A stretch of 64,000 nt of DNA, from sequence record MN648445, one strand, 5' to 3'. The translations under genes were made by a program, and so were the position numbers. Source of the DNA: Escherichia phage FP43. Within the stretch, counting starts at the first letter, position 1; the number at the start of each line of letters is the position of its first letter. The notes beneath the pieces were generated by a model. It saw nothing but the letters and a program-made list of their open reading frames with translations, was not told where the DNA came from and did no database searches. Below, piece after piece: positions 2,351 through 21,623 of this stretch.

Positions 2351-3268
2351 ATGGATTTAGAAATGATGTTGGATGAAGATTACAAAGAAGGTATTGCACT
2401 TGCCGACTTTAGTAACATTGCGTTGGCAGCCGCATTAAACAACTTTGAAGATGGCGATAAAATTACTGTTCCAATGGTTCGCCATGTAATATTGAATTCA
2501 ATTCGTAAAAACGTAGTGATGTTCCGTAAGCAAGGCTATACAAAATTTGTATTGTGTATGGATAATGCTACTTCAGGTTATTGGCGACGTGACTTTGCTT
2601 ACTATTACAAGAAAAATCGCAAAACCGATCGTGAAGCTTCAAAGTGGGATTGGGAAGGATATTTTACTGCACTCCATCAAGTTGTTGATGAGATTAAGAA
2701 ATACATGCCATACGTTGTAATGGATATTGACAAGTATGAAGCGGATGACCATATCGGTGTATTAACTAAATATTTGTCATTAGCTGGTCATAAGGTATGT
2801 ATTGTTGCATCAGATGGTGACTTTACACAATTACACAAATATCCTAACGTTAAACAGTGGTCGCCACCACAGAAAAAATGGGTTAAAATTAAGAATGGTT
2901 CTGCTGAAATTGATTGCATGACTAAAATTCTTAAAGGCGACCGTAAGGATGGTGTTGCATCTGTTCGAGTTCGTGGTGACTTCTGGTTTACTCGAGTTGA
3001 AGGTGAACGAACTCCAAGCATGAAAACATCAATTATTGAAGCAATTGCTAACGACCGTTCTCAAGCTGAAGTATTATTAAGTGCAGAAGAATATAAACGG
3101 TATCAAGAAAATTTGGTTCTCATTGATTTTGATTATATCCCTGATAATATTGCTTCAACCATTATAGAGTATTATAACTCGTATAAACAACAACCTAAAG
3201 GCAAGATTTATTCATACTTTGTAAAATCTGGTCTTTCTAAATTAACAAGTGTAATTAATGAATTCTGA
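2351..3268 (+). CDS. rnh: RNase H (5'-3' exonuclease / flap endonuclease)
   Basis: 305-aa ORF, same length as T4 RNase H; N-terminus MDLEMMLDEDYKEG matches T4 by recall. Confidence 0.9.
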   Translation: MDLEMMLDEDYKEGIALADFSNIALAAALNNFEDGDKITVPMVRHVILNSIRKNVVMFRKQGYTKFVLCMDNATSGYWRRDFAYYYKKNRKTDREASKWDWEGYFTALHQVVDEIKKYMPYVVMDIDKYEADDHIGVLTKYLSLAGHKVCIVASDGDFTQLHKYPNVKQWSPPQKKWVKIKNGSAEIDCMTKILKGDRKDGVASVRVRGDFWFTRVEGERTPSMKTSIIEAIANDRSQAEVLLSAEEYKRYQENLVLIDFDYIPDNIASTIIEYYNSYKQQPKGKIYSYFVKSGLSKLTSVINEF

Positions 3269-3275
3269 GGTAAAC

Positions 3276-3545
3276 ATGGCTAAGAAAGAAGCAGTTGAAT
3301 TTAATCAAGATGTGCATGGTGAAGAACTGGCTAAACTAGTCAAGGAAGCTTCCGATAACAAACTTAAAATTTCTGGTTATAATGAACTGATTAAAGACAT
3401 TCGTACTCGTGCTAAAGAAGAGCTTGGTGTCGATGGAAAAATGTTTAATCGTTTGTTAGCTCTTTATCATAAAGATGCTCGTGACCAATTTGAAGCTGAA
3501 AACGAAGAGGTAGTCGAGCTTTATGACACAGTTTTCACTAAGTGA
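3276..3545 (+). CDS. dsbA: Double-stranded DNA binding protein DsbA (late transcription enhancer)
   Basis: 89 aa from ATG 3276 (MAKKEAVEF...), RBS GAGG upstream; matches T4 DsbA length and sequence by recall; track ORF start 3258 is an upstream in-frame ATG. Confidence 0.85.
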   Translation: MAKKEAVEFNQDVHGEELAKLVKEASDNKLKISGYNELIKDIRTRAKEELGVDGKMFNRLLALYHKDARDQFEAENEEVVELYDTVFTK

Positions 3546-3861
3546 TATTAAACCGGTTGATGAGGCCGGTTTATCTGAACAAGAATTAGCAGTAAAACAT
3601 GATAAAGATGATATCGCTAAATTGCTTGACCGCCAAGAAAACGGATTCATTATCGAATCTATGGTTGAACAATTTGGTATGTCTTATTTAGAAGCAACAA
3701 CTGCTTTCTTGGAAGAAAATTCTATTCCAGAAACACAATTTGCTAAATTTATTCCTACAGGAATTGTTGAAAAAATTACAAGCGAAGCAATTGACGAAAA
3801 CATGCTTCGCCCATCAGTTGCTCGTGGTGAAAAAACTAATACGTTAGATTTCTTATTATGA
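3523..3861 (+). CDS. 33: Late transcription accessory protein gp33
   Basis: 112-aa ORF MTQFSLSDIKPVDEAGLSEQEL; same length and sequence pattern as T4 gp33; synteny. Confidence 0.85.
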   Translation: MTQFSLSDIKPVDEAGLSEQELAVKHDKDDIAKLLDRQENGFIIESMVEQFGMSYLEATTAFLEENSIPETQFAKFIPTGIVEKITSEAIDENMLRPSVARGEKTNTLDFLL

Positions 3862-4511
3862 TTAAAATACGCATGCCTCCTGATGGAGAACGTTATATTA
3901 ACGGAAAATCGGTATACAAACTATACTTGATGTGCAAACAACATTTTAATGGTCGGTATGACGTAATCAAATATAACTGGTGCATGCGTGTTTCGGATAA
4001 TGCGTATCAAAAACGCCGAGATAAATATTTCTTTGAAAAACTAGCAGAGAAATATAAATTGAAGGAACTCACCTTGATATTCATAAGCAACTTAGTTGCT
4101 AACCAAGACGCATGGATTGGTGAGATATCAGACGCTGATGCATTAGTTTTCTATAGGGAATATATTGGACGTCTCAAACAAGCTAAAGAGACGTTTGCCG
4201 AAGACGTACGTAACATCTACTATTTCAGTAAGAAAGTTGAAGTTAGTGCGCTTCAAGAGATATTTGATTATAATAACAACGTTCAGTCGAGCTACATATT
4301 CAAATTGCTACAAAGCAATATAATTTCATTTGAAACCTTCTTGTTGTTGGATTCATTCTTGAATATTATAGATAAGCATGACGAACTTACTGACAATTTA
4401 GTCTGGCAAAATTATTCTACAAAATTAAAGGCATATCGAAAAATACTTCAAATCGATGGAAATGCTGCTAAGAAATTGTTCATAGAAACAATCAAATCAT
4501 GTAAGTATTAA
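3858..4511 (+). CDS. 59: Helicase loader gp59
   Basis: 217-aa ORF MIKIRMPPDGERYINGKSVYKLY, same length as T4 gp59; ATGA overlap with gene 33 stop. Confidence 0.9.
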   Translation: MIKIRMPPDGERYINGKSVYKLYLMCKQHFNGRYDVIKYNWCMRVSDNAYQKRRDKYFFEKLAEKYKLKELTLIFISNLVANQDAWIGEISDADALVFYREYIGRLKQAKETFAEDVRNIYYFSKKVEVSALQEIFDYNNNVQSSYIFKLLQSNIISFETFLLLDSFLNIIDKHDELTDNLVWQNYSTKLKAYRKILQIDGNAAKKLFIETIKSCKY

Positions 4512-4540
4512 GCTTTATTTCTTGTGTGTTAAAATTACTT

Positions 4541-4548
4541 TATAAATA
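4541..4548 (+). promoter_or_regulatory. Late promoter (TATAAATA) upstream of gene 32
   Basis: Exact TATAAATA 80 nt upstream of gene 32 ATG. Confidence 0.5.
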
Positions 4549-4555
4549 AATCATA

Positions 4556-4627
4556 CCAGCTACGAGGTATAAGTGTCGTAGCAACCAACTGTAAATAAAT
4601 TAAATAATCTAAATAAAGGTAAATATA
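4556..4627 (+). promoter_or_regulatory. Gene 32 5' leader: probable autoregulatory translational operator (stem/pseudoknot plus A/U-rich tract)
   Basis: Stem gctacg...cgtagc (4559-4582) followed by long A/U-rich unstructured run aaataaattaaataatctaaataaaggtaaatata ending at ATG; architecture of the T4 gp32 operator. Confidence 0.5.
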
Positions 4628-5527
4628 ATGTTTAAACGTAAATCTACTGCTGACCTCGCTGCTCAAATGGCTAAACTGAACGGTAACAAAGGTTTCTCTT
4701 CAGAAGATAAAGGCGAATGGAAGCTGAAGCTAGATGCATCAGGTAATGGTCAAGCGGTAATTCGTTTCCTGCCAGCAAAAACTGATGACGCACTACCATT
4801 TGCAATTCTTGTTAACCACGGTTTCAAGAAAAATGGTAAATGGTATATTGAAAATTGCTCTTCTACACATGGTGATTACGACTCTTGTCCTGTATGTCAG
4901 TACATTATTAAAAATGACCTGTACAATACCAACAAAACTGAATATTCTCAACTGAAACGTAAAACTTCTTATTGGGCTAATATTCTGGTTGTTAAAGACC
5001 CTCAAGCTCCAGATAACGAAGGTAAAGTATTTAAATATCGTTTCGGTAAAAAGATTTGGGACAAAATCAATGCAATGATTGCAGTTGATACCGAAATGGG
5101 TGAAACTCCGGTTGATGTTACTTGCCCGTTTGAAGGTGCCAACTTCGTTCTGAAAGCTAAGCAGGTTTCCGGTTTTAGCAACTATGACGAATCTAAATTC
5201 TTGGGTCAATCTGAAATTCCTCGTATTAATGACGAAGCATTCCAGAAAGAACTATATGACCAGATGGTAGACCTTACTACTTTGACGGCTAAAGACCAGT
5301 TCAAATCCTTTGAAAAATTAAATGAATCTTTCGCTAAGGTTCTTGGTACTGCCGCTCTTGGTGGTGCAGCAGCTGCCGCAGCTTCTGTTGCAGATAAAGT
5401 TGCTTCTGACCTCGACGATTTTGATAAAGACATGGAAGCCTTTAGTTCTGCAAAAACTGAAGATGACTTCATGAGTTCCTCGTCTTCTGACGATGGCGAC
5501 CTCGATGACCTGTTAGCTGGTCTATAA
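4628..5527 (+). CDS. 32: Single-stranded DNA binding protein gp32
   Basis: 299-aa [39 protein letters not shown]; acidic C-terminal tail; near T4 gp32 length (301 aa). Confidence 0.95.
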
Positions 5528-5533
5528 TAAATT

Positions 5534-5555
5534 GGGAGACTTCGGTCTCCCTTTT
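5534..5555 (+). terminator. Rho-independent terminator after gene 32
   Basis: Hairpin GGGAGAC-TTCG-GTCTCCC followed by TTTT. Confidence 0.75.
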
Positions 5556-5583
5556 GGGCATCTGTAACTTACCTAAAAAAGTT

Positions 5584-5612
5584 GTTTACTTCCTCCAAGG
5601 ACATGATACTAT
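5584..5612 (+). promoter_or_regulatory. Early promoter
   Basis: GTTTAC, 17-nt spacer, GATACTAT; conserved downstream leader CAACAACATGAGGAAAT before ATG 5642. Confidence 0.6.
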
Positions 5613-5641
5613 AGACCTATCAACAACATGAGGAAATCAAG

Positions 5642-6028
5642 ATGGAAATCGGAAAAACTTATATCATTAACCCTTTATTTAAAGATGACTTTGTCCAAGA
5701 AGCTCCACGCAATAACAGCCGGATGCTAGATTTGATCGAGAAACATGGCCCAAGTTTTGTTGTGGAAGAAGATGAATATGATGGCGACGGCTACAACGTA
5801 GTATGTGTAACCATGGAAGATGGCACAGAATGTTCTGCTGGCGGTCCGGCAGAAACTTATTTTGAAATTTATCCTGACGAGTTCAAATACTTCAACGAGG
5901 TGACTTTAGAAAAGCCTCAACCTATTGACGAAGGTATAGTTTTAGGTGTAACAAAAATTCATTGTGTCGTGGATGAAACTAACGTTGACGAAATCATCGA
6001 ACTTTTGCAAAAAACTTTTAAAAAGTAG
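5642..6028 (+). CDS. Hypothetical protein (paralog A of tandem pair)
   Basis: 128-aa ORF MEIGKTYIINP...HGPSFVV; clear sequence similarity to next ORF; own promoter and RBS GAGGAAA. Confidence 0.6.
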   Translation: MEIGKTYIINPLFKDDFVQEAPRNNSRMLDLIEKHGPSFVVEEDEYDGDGYNVVCVTMEDGTECSAGGPAETYFEIYPDEFKYFNEVTLEKPQPIDEGIVLGVTKIHCVVDETNVDEIIELLQKTFKK

Positions 6029-6066
6029 TATACAAAAAGATAGGACTATGTTATAGTAGTCCTATC
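6028..6066 (+). promoter_or_regulatory. Promoter-like element with perfect 10-bp inverted repeat (GTATAC variant -35)
   Basis: GTATAC at 6028-6033; inverted repeat GATAGGACTA (6039-6048) / TAGTCCTATC (6057-6066) around TGTTATAG; followed by CAAAACAAATGAGAGGAAAT leader. Confidence 0.4.
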
Positions 6067-6089
6067 AAAACAAATGAGAGGAAATCAAA

Positions 6090-6452
6090 ATGAAAATTGG
6101 AAAAACTTATATCATCAATCCAGAATGTAAAGCTATCTTCGCCAATGAATGCCCACAAAACGCCGATATGCTGGCTTTGATTGAGCTTCATGGTCCTAGT
6201 TTTGTTGTAAAAGACATGAACACAGATTATGATGATGATAAATGTGTAACCCGTGTAACTATGCGAGACGGTACTGAATTCGGTTTTGATGGTAAGCCAG
6301 GTTCATATTTTGAGCTTTATGATGATGAGTTTAAACACTTCATCGAGGTATCTCCAGAGTCTATTTCTAAACAATCACTCATCTTTGAAGTGACTACGGA
6401 AAATGCTCGAGATGTGATTGCAGAAATTAAAGAAATTTTTGGAATAAAATAG
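6090..6452 (+). CDS. Hypothetical protein (paralog B of tandem pair)
   Basis: 120-aa ORF MKIGKTYIINP...HGPSFVV; paralogous to 5642..6028. Confidence 0.6.
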   Translation: MKIGKTYIINPECKAIFANECPQNADMLALIELHGPSFVVKDMNTDYDDDKCVTRVTMRDGTEFGFDGKPGSYFELYDDEFKHFIEVSPESISKQSLIFEVTTENARDVIAEIKEIFGIK

Positions 6453-6489
6453 TATACAACAGAGTAATGGTGTGATACTATTACTCTGT
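6452..6489 (+). promoter_or_regulatory. Early-type promoter with -10 inside hairpin loop (GTATAC variant -35)
   Basis: GTATAC 6452-6457, 18-nt spacer, GATACTAT 6474-6481; perfect inverted repeat ACAGAGTAAT (6459-6468) / ATTACTCTGT (6480-6489). Confidence 0.45.
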
Positions 6490-6517
6490 CAAAACAAATG
6501 AAGCAACGGAGAATAAA

Positions 6518-6766
6518 ATGAAATTACAACGCCAAAGCATTAACGATTCTGAAGTTAAAGGCAAATGGTACTTCAACATCCTTGATAAAGATGCTGAACT
6601 CCTTGAACAAGCTGAAGCAGCTTTACGTGAAATGGGCTGGAATGAAGAATGTGATGGATGTCCACTTTATGAAGACGGCGAAAGCGCAGGATTCTGGATT
6701 CACCACTCCGACGTTGAAATGTTCAAAGCTGATTGGAAAGTTGTTAAAGCAAATCTGAGGAAATAA
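6518..6766 (+). CDS. Hypothetical protein
   Basis: 82-aa ORF with RBS GGAG; positional equivalent of T4 frd.x ORFs. Confidence 0.5.
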   Translation: MKLQRQSINDSEVKGKWYFNILDKDAELLEQAEAALREMGWNEECDGCPLYEDGESAGFWIHHSDVEMFKADWKVVKANLRK

Positions 6767-6768
6767 AA

Positions 6769-8544
<1,776 letters not shown>

Positions 8545-17526: not shown

Positions 17527-17556
17527 GTTTACAACATGGTGGAGTTGTGATACTAT
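17527..17556 (+). promoter_or_regulatory. Early promoter
   Basis: GTTTAC 17527-17532, 18-nt spacer, TGTGATACTAT 17546-17556; leader CAACAAATGAGGAAAT. Confidence 0.6.
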
Positions 17557-17584
17557 AACTCTACCAACAAATGAGGAAATAGAA

Positions 17585-21553: not shown

Positions 21554-21593
21554 GTTTACTTTGGTACAGGTTATGTTATTATAGACCTGTACC
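21554..21593 (+). promoter_or_regulatory. Early promoter with -10 embedded in the loop of a perfect 8-bp inverted repeat
   Basis: GTTTAC 21554-21559; GGTACAGG (21563-21570) / CCTGTACC (21586-21593) flanking TTATGTTATTATAGA containing TATTAT. Confidence 0.6.
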
Positions 21594-21623
21594 AACAAAC
21601 AACTTAAACATCTGGAGAATAAA

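Follow-up and report, generated by a model that had tools for sequence, protein, structure and literature searches.

The analysed window is a 64,000-nucleotide stretch of Escherichia phage FP43 (MN648445), a Mosigvirus-like phage of the T4 type, and the features described here lie in its hyperplastic region between gene 32 and frd (Table 1). Gene 32, which the first-pass annotation placed upstream of two small paralogs, is borne out by its Pfam match. It is a conserved core gene, with 93-98% nucleotide identity to its counterparts in the Mosigvirus phages Mizar and LH01, and forms the left border of the variable region. The hairpin behind it fits the definition of an intrinsic terminator, and a terminator is annotated at the equivalent site in phages ATK47 and e112. 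Three small genes follow, each with its own upstream cassette: two FRD2-family genes (copies A and B) and a homologue of frd.1, which carries the DUF5417 annotation in T4 as well. The variable-slot ORF to their right begins 3 nt after the frd.1 stop codon and has no cassette of its own; it is missing in Mizar, is replaced by other small ORFs in LH01, ph55 and JK45, and has 68.5% nucleotide identity to the locus of Gaprivervirus RZ. An Rfam search of positions 4300-7300 returned one sub-threshold chance match and nothing relevant.

Table 1. Features of the gene 32-frd region, with positions in the window (PeSL, promoter-early stem-loop).
Feature	Position	Strand	Remarks
Gene 32 (ssDNA-binding protein)	4628..5527	+	Pfam gp32 PF08804, 2.1e-60
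Gene 32 intrinsic terminator	5534..5556	+	GGGAGAC-UUCG-GUCUCCC then UUUU; MFE -13.4, z -2.9
Cassette 1	5574..5641	+	Early promoter and leader of copy A; without stem-loop
Cassette 1 A-tract	5574-5579	+	
Cassette 1 -35	5584-5589	+	GTTTAC
Cassette 1 TGn	5604-5606	+	
Cassette 1 -10	5607-5612	+	TACTAT
Copy A, FRD2-family, 128 aa	5642..6028	+	Type-1 C-terminal domain (...GVTKIHCVVDETNVDEIIELLQKTFKK)
Cassette 2, alpha-type PeSL	6026..6089	+	Promoter, stem-loop and leader of copy B
Cassette 2 TAG stop	6026-6028	+	Overlaps the -35
Cassette 2 -35	6028-6033	+	GTATAC
Cassette 2 -10	6052-6057	+	TATAGT
Copy B, FRD2-family, 120 aa	6090..6452	+	Type-2 C-terminal domain (...LIFEVTTENARDVIAEIKEIFGIK); PF03197 2e-21
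Cassette 3, beta-type PeSL	6450..6517	+	Promoter, stem-loop and leader; serves the frd.1 homologue
Cassette 3 TAG stop	6450-6452	+	
Cassette 3 -35	6452-6457	+	GTATAC
Cassette 3 -10	6476-6481	+	TACTAT
frd.1 homologue, DUF5417, 82 aa	6518..6766	+	PF17438 3.8e-35
Variable-slot ORF, 112 aa	6769..7107	+	phrog_8592; just left of frd

The coordinates and lengths first given for the two paralogous ORFs are correct, all the motifs quoted for them are present, and the ORFs are indeed paralogous, with 51 identities over 92 aligned residues (BLASTP, E 2e-26). Their similarity extends beyond the first residues, yet it is uneven: 55% over the N-terminal 92 aa and only 16% over the C-terminal ~25 aa. Both proteins match Pfam FRD2 (PF03197) over the whole profile and above its gathering cutoff of 29 bits (A with 115.7 bits over profile positions 1-96 of 96, B with 76.9 bits over 2-95), and both also match phrog_622 (5e-36 for A and 3.7e-25 for B). 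The protein family is thus an already described one, FRD2.

Structure prediction gave similar models for the two proteins, each with a predicted SH3/FeoA-like barrel; the AF2 model of B has a pLDDT of 88.0 and shares its architecture with the AF2 model of A. In both, an SH3/FeoA-like beta-barrel N-terminal domain (residues ~1-88) is predicted to be joined through a floppy linker to a short C-terminal domain of strand-helix form, the type of which differs between A and B. Structural neighbours of the models are FeoA/DtxR-type SH3-like barrels, and a BFVD search gave 57 matches with E <= 1e-3, of which those with names are T4-like phage proteins, GoF among them. This placement agrees with the published fold of T4 Frd.2, an early protein for which an LSm/SH3-like model has been reported (PMC12152347). 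Amber mutants of T4 frd.2 show normal plating (PMC12152347), whereas a CRISPRi-ART screen identified frd.2 as a fitness gene, the sole T4 gene of unknown function scored as fitness-important in this transcriptome-wide knock-down (PMC11879866). Polar effects could be the cause of this conflict. A and B would most likely act as a non-essential but fitness-relevant early factor, the barrel binding a protein or RNA of host or phage origin and the variable C-terminal domain giving specificity.

All three cassettes contain the promoter boxes recognised by the first-pass annotation, a -35 of GTTTAC or GTATAC and a -10 of TACTAT or TATAGT, separated by 17-18 nt and accompanied by a TGn element (GTTTAC-17-TACTAT in cassette 1, GTATAC-18-TATAGT in cassette 2 and GTATAC-18-TACTAT in cassette 3). 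They share a common order of A-tract, GTWTAC, 17-18 nt spacer, TGn, TAYWRT, leader, Shine-Dalgarno (SD) sequence and ATG, and in cassettes 2 and 3 the TAG stop codon of the upstream gene overlaps the -35. To call the modules nearly identical was, however, an overstatement, as their pairwise identities are 74%, 63% and 77%, the last being that of cassettes 2 and 3. The conserved leader likewise holds only in part; the exact 13-mer TCAAAACAAATGA is confined to cassettes 2 and 3, while cassette 1 has the variant ATCAACAACATGA. The leaders of cassettes 1 and 2 are ATCAACAACATGAGGAAATCAAG and TCAAAACAAATGAGAGGAAATCAAA, that of cassette 3 ends in a GGAG-type SD, and in all three cassettes an SD (GAGGAAAT or GGAGAAT) lies 5-8 nt 5' of the ATG. 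With up to two mismatches allowed, the 13-mer is not enriched across the window (4 occurrences vs 6.2 expected); other cassettes do share a looser form of the leader, with the consensus ATCAAC(A)ACATGAGGAAAT.

Scanned for generic sigma-70 promoters, the region showed no enrichment (14 vs 11.5), so a T4-specific promoter pattern was needed. Using GT[ATG]TAC-N17-18-TANNNT, we found 18 matches in the window, 16 of them on the + strand, against 4.2 +/- 2.1 when its sequence was resampled with a first-order Markov model. The cassette promoters fit T4 early promoters as PMC2988021 describes them, as well as the PST/T4 PeSL consensus TTTACW-N17-TAYWAT (PMC4122927), and we assign all three upstream modules to the T4-type early promoters. 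No promoter features are annotated at this locus in the T4 GenBank records, and a literature search found no T4 start-site maps. A, B and frd.1 would be independent early transcription units, each with its own T4-type 'UP/-35/TGn/-10' promoter, from which the sigma-70 RNA polymerase of the host should transcribe immediately on infection. The early timing of A and B is suggested by the sequence class of their promoters together with the description of Frd.2 as an early protein (PMC12152347).

The perfect 10-bp inverted repeat ascribed to every module is present in cassettes 2 (6039-6066) and 3 (6459-6489) and absent from cassette 1. In cassette 2 it reads GATAGGACTA / loop TGTTATAG / TAGTCCTATC, with the -10 inside the hairpin, and in cassette 3 ACAGAGTAAT / GGTGTGATACT / ATTACTCTGT. 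Folded as RNA, the two hairpins have MFEs of -16.6 kcal/mol (z -5.8) and -17.0 kcal/mol (z -4.1), and 0-1 of 200 shuffles were as stable; the fold of cassette 1 contained no significant hairpin (z -0.68). Hairpins enclosing the -10 occur at four promoters in the window (6028, 6452, 17527 and 21554), all with an MFE <= -16.6, within the lowest 0.2% of the window background. They hold the same position in the cassette, while the arm sequences of the hairpins (at 6039, 6459, 17527 and 21554) are entirely different.

The pairing is also kept across phages. For the alpha-type hairpin (cassette 2), 98.9% of the cells in an alignment of 9 phages are paired, with AU, GU and GC found at one pair; for the beta-type hairpin (cassette 3), 97.2% of the cells are paired and three pairs show compensatory change. 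Slid controls are only 27-57% paired, vs 97-99% observed. In a covariation sample of 6-9 related sequences, the compensatory change of the beta type was reached in 8 of 500 shuffles, and that of the alpha type was not distinguishable from shuffles (112/500). Compensatory changes from A-T to G-C occur within both cassette types, and of the cells that depart from Watson-Crick pairing, nearly all are G.U when read on the + strand (9 vs 1 C.A). These patterns indicate that the pairing is preserved by compensatory changes and that the structure is under selection.

We find it hardly credible that the hairpins and the likeness of the cassettes are by-products of AT-rich composition and the promoter consensus. 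Although T4-type early promoters share a long consensus, so that some likeness is expected, and neither the generic sigma-70 scan nor the leader search with two mismatches showed enrichment, chance fits poorly with the fold z-scores and shuffles, with hairpins at the same position of four promoters, and with pairing retained far above the slid controls. Perfect 10-bp dyad symmetry over the -10 is also the classic position for a repressor, and the palindromes might be operators, bound by a dimeric protein that switches the early promoters off or modulates them. This seems very improbable to us, as the arms that differ completely among the four hairpins offer no shared half-site or recognition sequence, loop length ranges from 8 to 13 nt, and compensatory, G.U-tolerant variation is the signature of a folded strand rather than a duplex read by a protein.

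The role of the cassette 2 and 3 hairpins in RNA is uncertain because they are not canonical intrinsic terminators. Only 4 of the 10 pairs are G-C, the hairpins are followed by AAAACAAATGA / CAAAACAAATGA rather than a U-tract, and a terminator scan of the + strand made no call at either of them. We also considered the cassette 2 hairpin as a minus-strand terminator, as it is followed by TTTTT in that direction, and rejected it; the T-run is the promoter A-tract and is not kept in LH01, ph55 or JK45, nor in cassette 3. The 10-bp stem-loop spans the -10 and extends to the predicted start site, so transcripts from a cassette's own promoter would not contain the hairpin. Read-through RNA from an upstream promoter, on the other hand, would have it directly after the upstream stop codon, where we infer that it most likely functions as an attenuator or as a structure protecting the 3' end.

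The inverted repeats could instead act mainly at the level of DNA, as cruciforms or as hairpins in single-stranded intermediates that stimulate recombination, template switching or inversion, the overlap with the promoter being incidental to any RNA role. Two metagenome contigs with an identical B protein have the same 12-bp stem enclosing 7-nt loops that are exact reverse complements (TGTGATA vs TATCACA), and this loop inversion abolishes the -10 while the hairpin is retained; this is, however, one inversion case only. PeSL stem-loops are known to block sequencing of a single-stranded template, and mini-circles between PeSLs have been detected (PMC2839356). Junctions between genomes do fall at the -10/right-arm core, yet many breakpoints lie outside the hairpins, and G.T wobbles almost only on the + strand fit sense RNA or one DNA strand better than a symmetric cruciform. 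We regard a mainly DNA-level role as unlikely, albeit compatible with the main explanation given below.

The cross-genome comparison proposed in the first-pass annotation, for which we used GenBank phage records and contigs carrying the exact protein, showed that both the copy number and the order of these genes vary among T4-like phages. B is found at >=90% identity (at least 90%) in 21 of the 569 phage records with an FRD2 match; a word-indexed protein search with B returned 5 relatives only, and scans of IMG/VR gave 3 loci for the cassette pattern and 2 for protein A. The window shares the order A-B with Mizar, LH01 and phiEC1 (and the contigs with the exact B protein always have A-B-frd.1); the order is B-A in other Mosigviruses, namely ESh15, ATK47 and ph55. 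RB69 and JK45 have a single FRD2 copy, T4 and e112 have frd.3 and frd.2, and RZ has two FRD2 copies with another gene between them; A and B thus co-occur, in either order, in a minority of Mosigviruses. Cassette 1 is kept 3' of the gene 32 terminator in all the Mosigvirus loci examined. The gene that lies 5' of the same hairpin cassette varies from phage to phage, one Vequintavirinae phage among them: the alpha hairpin cassette is identical beside the triple Frd.2 array of Vequintavirinae phage A7_1, and cassette 3 is homologous to the cassette 3' of frd.2 in T4 and e112, so the beta cassette comes after frd.2 in T4 and after B here.

The locus had been proposed to result from duplication and modular shuffling in a hyperplastic region. 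Shuffling is supported by the order swaps, by chimeras, by discordant domain trees and by the moved cassettes; a recent in-situ tandem duplication is not, as A and B are long diverged. The trees of the N- and C-terminal domains are incongruent (the T4 protein is 30% identical to A in the N-terminal and 88% in the C-terminal domain), and the relatives P0004 and P0005 are chimeras that combine an N-terminal domain of B type with a C-terminal domain of type 1. Compared with Mizar, the window is 100% identical over 6080-6650 and 60-78% identical over the N-terminal domain of A, with breakpoints near 5650 and 5900 that fall within coding sequence. Since some breakpoints are intragenic, PeSLs are not the sole recombination sites. 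Each gene also retains its own leader in whichever slot it occupies; the leaders travel with the genes, which places the junctions at the -10/start-site core.

For the C-terminal domain of B, the closest copies are A7_1c (52%), from a Vequintavirinae phage, and RZ_2 (44%), from a Gaprivervirus phage, and the nearest whole-length relative of B is P0003, with 72% identity in both domains. These relationships indicate that A and B are long-diverged FRD2 subfamilies with different C-terminal domains. They also make it quite improbable that a gene and its promoter cassette were recently copied locally and then diverged, even though A and B are adjacent, in the same orientation and of similar size, both end in a stop overlapping GTATAC and followed by the identical 13-mer TCAAAACAAATGA, and cassettes 2 and 3 are 77% alike. 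While the flanking DNA is 93-100% identical between phages, A and B have diverged to 55% and 16% in their two parts. The order is reversed in ESh15, ATK47 and ph55; the cassette 2 hairpin shows no sequence relationship to that of cassette 3, and the two have their orthologues in RB69-type and T4-type phages respectively; and the trees show the opposite of A and B of each two-copy phage being sisters.

We instead favour an assembly from existing modules. The conserved segments of the cassettes, one being the A-rich region of the stop and -35 and the other the -10/start-site core TAYWRTAGNCCTATCAA, would supply short homologies, as would internal motifs of the genes and their conserved first ~10 codons, that the phage recombination system could use to insert, delete, reorder and recombine gene modules. 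Such exchanges would then have brought two old paralogous alleles together as the A-B pair, with no fresh duplication. Taken whole, an FRD2 pair in early PeSL units with hairpins, shuffled through short homologies and assembled from old alleles, this is probably the best explanation of the locus on the sequence evidence. A more speculative extension, which we consider doubtful, is that the hairpins are dual-purpose, marking or protecting RNA 3' ends and also promoting template switching or inversion in DNA, and thereby move Frd.2 modules. If so, the hairpins and the -10/start-site core would move modules within Tevenvirinae and between phage subfamilies, and A and B, distinguished by their C-terminal domains, would be variants of a fitness-relevant early factor that differ in specificity.

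The locus is a compact illustration of how the accessory gene set of a T4-type phage is rebuilt, with short regulatory linkers and conserved gene ends allowing promoter-gene modules, and even protein domains, to be swapped. As frd.2 is a fitness-scored gene of unknown function (PMC11879866), the natural two-copy, swapped-order and chimeric Frd.2 variants could guide experiments on its binding partner. Current understanding is unchanged; the cassette class and the protein family have both already been described.

On the protein side, the GoF/MotB.1/Frd.2 family with an 'LSm-like fold' (Kim et al. 2025, PMC12152347) has a beta-barrel N-terminal domain, a flexible linker and a small C-terminal domain in common with the models of A and B, in which the N-terminal domain is predicted to be a bent five-stranded antiparallel beta-sheet with SH3/FeoA-like neighbours. 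On the regulatory side, the hairpins of cassettes 2 and 3 resemble Rho-independent terminators in forming a stable stem-loop right after a stop codon, but on the + strand they have neither the downstream U-tract nor the G-C-rich stem. Small variable genes swapped at conserved regulatory linkers are likewise found in the T-even internal-protein (IP) cassettes (Repoila et al. 1994), as these are described in PMC2839356 and PMC4122927; by that description they are flanked by a promoter and a terminator, and they involve another locus and other proteins.

The closest likeness is to the PeSLs, a published gene-shuffling system described in RB49/phi1 (Arbiol et al. 2010, PMC2839356) and in PST/T4 and nt-1/KVP40 (Comeau et al. 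2014, PMC4122927); the text of these two papers mentions none of frd, gene 32 and RB69. PeSLs have an upstream stop in an A/T-rich stretch and sigma-70-type -35 and -10 boxes, with a stem-loop that overlaps the boxes or lies between them, and end in an SD and ATG, as do cassettes 2 and 3. At the sequence level, the early promoter is present in the cassettes, with boxes ~17 nt apart and an A/T-rich upstream stretch, which in cassettes 2 and 3 adjoins the upstream stop, and all three have an SD and start codon at the 3' end; a stable stem-loop in or beside the promoter is found in cassettes 2 and 3 but is missing from cassette 1, so that the latter amounts to a plain early promoter or 'half' PeSL. 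PeSLs are present in multiple copies 5' of small ORFs in hyperplastic regions, and here an nhmmer profile of the three cassettes picked out 9 copies across the window (E < 1e-3), every one on the + strand and 5' of an ORF of 78-166 aa, while the 67-nt cassette 2 query matched 1262 places in 325 phage records. PeSLs also adjoin indels, replacements and reorderings between close relatives, and the cassettes are similarly sited at such junctions, some of which are intragenic. They differ in detail: the stems of RB49 PeSLs are G-tract/C-tract and those of PST are AGNA/TCNT, whereas the stems here are A/T-rich 10-bp perfect repeats, and the PST stem-loops are described just upstream of the promoter, whereas those here enclose the -10. 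Despite these differences, their shared architecture and siting identify the cassettes as PeSLs and not as a new kind of element.

The segment is the gene 32-frd region of a T4-type phage, with four small ORFs between gene 32 and frd (see table); T4 itself has the order 32, frd.3, frd.2, frd.1, frd. The nearest GenBank phages by DNA are the Mosigvirus-like Mizar, LH01 and phiEC1 (~94.5% identity over 4400-6775), and no GenBank phage record spans the full 5400-7200 query. Between frd.1 and frd lies a slot that is vacant in Mizar and phiEC1, and holds two other small ORFs each in LH01 and ph55 and one in JK45. The 112-aa ORF that occupies it here has its nearest DNA match in Gaprivervirus RZ (68.5%) and is present in 0/8 contigs with the exact B protein. 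The td gene has no intron in the window, while some otherwise near-identical contigs (L020:3764-5363) carry one with an I-TevI-type GIY-YIG homing endonuclease; td is likewise interrupted in T4 and e112.

Features of the locus and of the related promoters in the window
Feature	Position	Strand	Remarks
gp33	3523-3861	+
gp59	3858-4511	+
Gene 32	4628-5527	+
Gene 32 terminator	5534-5556		canonical; cassette 1 just after
Cassette 1	5574-5641		upstream of copy A
Copy A	5642-6028	+	128 aa
Cassette 2	6026-6089		upstream of copy B
Inverted repeat, cassette 2	6039-6066		perfect 10-bp; -16.6 kcal/mol, z -5.8
Copy B	6090-6452	+	120 aa
Cassette 3	6450-6517		upstream of frd.1 homologue
Inverted repeat, cassette 3	6459-6489		perfect 10-bp; -17.0 kcal/mol, z -4.1
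frd.1 homologue	6518-6766	+	DUF5417
112-aa ORF	6769-7107	+	phrog_8592
frd	about 7097-7687	+
td	7684-8544	+
nrdA		+	3' of td
Early promoter	17527-17583		long hairpin around -10, MFE -16.9
Early promoter	21554-21610		11-bp perfect stem around -10, MFE -19.5; between gp30.8 and gp30.7 homologues, each with own cassette

The first-pass annotation took copies A and B for paralogs, and this holds (55% identity over 92 aa, E 2e-26, BLASTP). Both pass the gathering score of Pfam FRD2 (PF03197) over the full profile and both match phrog_622. Identity is 55% over the N-terminal ~88 aa vs 16% over the C-terminal ~25 aa.

The same annotation described a nearly identical promoter module with a perfect 10-bp inverted repeat ahead of A, B and the frd.1 homologue. 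The three modules do align, sharing an A-tract, a -35 of GTTTAC or GTATAC, a 17-18 nt spacer, TGn, a -10 of TACTAT or TATAGT, a short leader, a Shine-Dalgarno sequence (SD) and ATG. However, their pairwise identity is only 74%, 63% and 77%, and folding found no significant structure in cassette 1 (z -0.68), which is a plain early promoter. The description was hence right in substance but overstated twice, in the degree of similarity and in giving the hairpin to three modules rather than two.

Such promoters are not confined to this locus. The pattern GT[ATG]TAC-N17-18-TANNNT has 18 matches in the window (16 on the + strand) vs 4.2 +/- 2.1 expected from first-order Markov resamplings, and a search with a profile of the three cassettes recovers nine copies (E < 1e-3), every one of them on the + strand and ahead of an ORF of 78-166 aa. 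Very stable hairpins surround the -10 at four promoters (6028, 6452, 17527 and 21554; MFE <= -16.6, the lowest 0.2% of the window background), with arms unrelated in sequence but identical in position. Across phages, the 67-nt cassette 2 query matches 1262 places in 325 records, several per genome; one of these is LTH01, a 141 kb phage similar in genome size to A7_1. The window cassettes have the UP/-35/TGn/-10 architecture of T4 early promoters (PMC2988021). Their composite layout is that defined for promoter-early stem-loops (PeSLs), in which the stop codon of the upstream gene sits in A/T-rich sequence and the -35 and -10 follow, with a stem-loop between these boxes or overlapping them, ahead of the SD and ATG (PMC2839356). 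The PST/T4-type PeSL promoter consensus is TTTACW-N17-TAYWAT (PMC4122927). Given these matches in architecture and layout, cassettes 2 and 3 have every PeSL feature recognisable at the sequence level. The cassettes belong to a dispersed early-promoter family, the PeSLs.

Two homologous hairpin types occur across phages. The alpha type (GATAGGRCTA...TAGYCCTATC, -10 TATAGT) is found in cassette 2 and 3' of the A-type gene in RB69, JK45, ph55, ESh15 and ATK47; the beta type (ACAGRGTAAT...ATTACYCTGT, -10 TACTAT) is found in cassette 3 and 3' of frd.2 in T4 and e112. In the alpha alignment 98.9% of cells are paired, with one pair appearing as AU, GU and GC, although 112/500 shuffles reach the observed value (not significant). 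In the beta alignment 97.2% are paired, with three compensatory pairs, and 8/500 shuffles reach the observed value. In slid controls, 27-57% of cells pair. From these alignments, the hairpin appears to be selected as a structure. Since the non-Watson-Crick cells, read on the + strand, are nearly all G.U (nine vs one C.A, a small sample), the sense strand may be the one that folds, though this is suggestive only.

Transcription is predicted to start ~7 nt past the -10, within the right arm, and so the cassette's own transcript would lack the hairpin, while read-through RNA would carry it immediately 3' of the upstream stop codon. A canonical intrinsic terminator is ruled out, because there is no U-tract and few G-C pairs. 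Most likely, the hairpin would act as an attenuator or in 3'-end protection, by analogy with the RB49 PeSLs, for which these roles have been proposed and in part shown (PMC2839356). Two metagenome contigs with the identical B protein (L019 and L020, both at 2849-2931, corresponding to window 6459-6489) share an identical 12-bp beta stem, but the 7-nt loop is exactly reverse-complemented (TGTGATA vs TATCACA); the TGn/-10 is lost and the hairpin retained. This inversion suggests that the hairpin may form in DNA in vivo.

The annotation also read the locus as a product of modular shuffling. Gene order is A-B in the window, Mizar, LH01 and phiEC1, and B-A in ESh15, ATK47 and ph55, where the intergenic promoter is lost and the leader retained. 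RB69 and JK45 have a single A-type copy, T4 and e112 have frd.3 plus frd.2, Gaprivervirus RZ has two copies with another gene between, and the Vequintavirinae phage A7_1 has three in tandem. A B-type protein at least 90% identical occurs in 21/569 phage records with an FRD2 match, and the exact B protein was seen only in the order A-B-frd.1. The N-terminal and C-terminal domain trees conflict: T4 Frd.2 shares 88% identity with A in the C-terminal domain vs 30% in the N-terminal domain, the C-terminal domain of B clusters with copies from A7_1 (A7_1c, 52%) and RZ (RZ_2, 44%), and P0004 and P0005 are chimeras, with an N-terminal domain of the B type and the type-1 C-terminal domain carried by A. 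Identity to Mizar is a patchwork, at 93-98% in gene 32, down to 60-78% in the N-terminal domain of A and 100% over 6080-6650 (cassette 2, B, cassette 3 and frd.1). These comparisons support modular shuffling and argue against recent local duplication. Each gene keeps its own leader in any slot, with divergence right after the common core TAYWRTAGNCCTATCAA, which locates junctions in the -10/start-site portion of the cassette. Further junctions fall at conserved intragenic motifs (about 5650 and 5900), so crossover sites are not cassettes alone.

Several observations accompany this picture. Compared with Mizar and LH01, A has had its N-terminal domain replaced as a local patch, which is nearer to the second-position gene of ESh15; the exact A protein is absent from a 5.8-billion-sequence collection (best match 94%), and the B protein is 100% identical in 23 contigs. 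In A7_1, an alpha-type cassette (2931-3015 of the 5.4-kb locus; 86% over 87 nt, hairpin identical to window 6039-6066) lies directly 3' of the three FRD2-family genes, is preceded by an apparent remnant of a type-1 C-terminal-domain 3' end, and is the sole T4-early-type promoter match there. A hydrophobic, unannotated 22-codon ORF with its own SD occurs in T4 (MFAPYIMAAVMLVCLYLLIKAC, reverse strand, frd.2-frd.1 gap) and ESh15 (MLAPYIMAVVMLVCLYLLIKAC, 2589-2657 of the locus); its first 11 codons recur in two IMG/VR contigs, and it is absent from the window.

AF2 models of A (pLDDT 85.6) and B (pLDDT 88.0) share one architecture. A strand at 6-9 and a helical hairpin at 11-35 are followed by strands to about 87; beyond a linker of low confidence comes a C-terminal helix, which in A has short strands before it. 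The models reproduce what has been described for T4 Frd.2, a member of the GoF/MotB.1/Frd.2 family, in which the N-terminal domain is LSm/SH3-like and the C-terminal domains vary (PMC12152347). Foldseek against viral models gave 57 matches (E <= 1e-3), the named ones being T4-like phage proteins, including GoF; the family is narrow (40 cluster representatives at E <= 1e-3 among 1.84 billion). T4 frd.2 amber mutants plate normally (PMC12152347), yet frd.2 was the only function-unknown gene that a T4 CRISPRi-ART screen scored as 'Fit' (PMC11879866). Our best guess, held with low confidence, is an early, conditionally useful factor whose barrel binds protein or RNA and whose C-terminal domain sets specificity.

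Both PeSL cassettes and FRD2/Frd.2 proteins are of kinds already described. What this locus adds is new at the level of example only: the tandem of A and B in Mosigviruses, with its polymorphic order; chimeric domain combinations in the FRD2 family; A/T-rich 10-bp stems around the -10; loop inversion in one metagenomic variant; and an alpha cassette in a Vequintavirinae phage.
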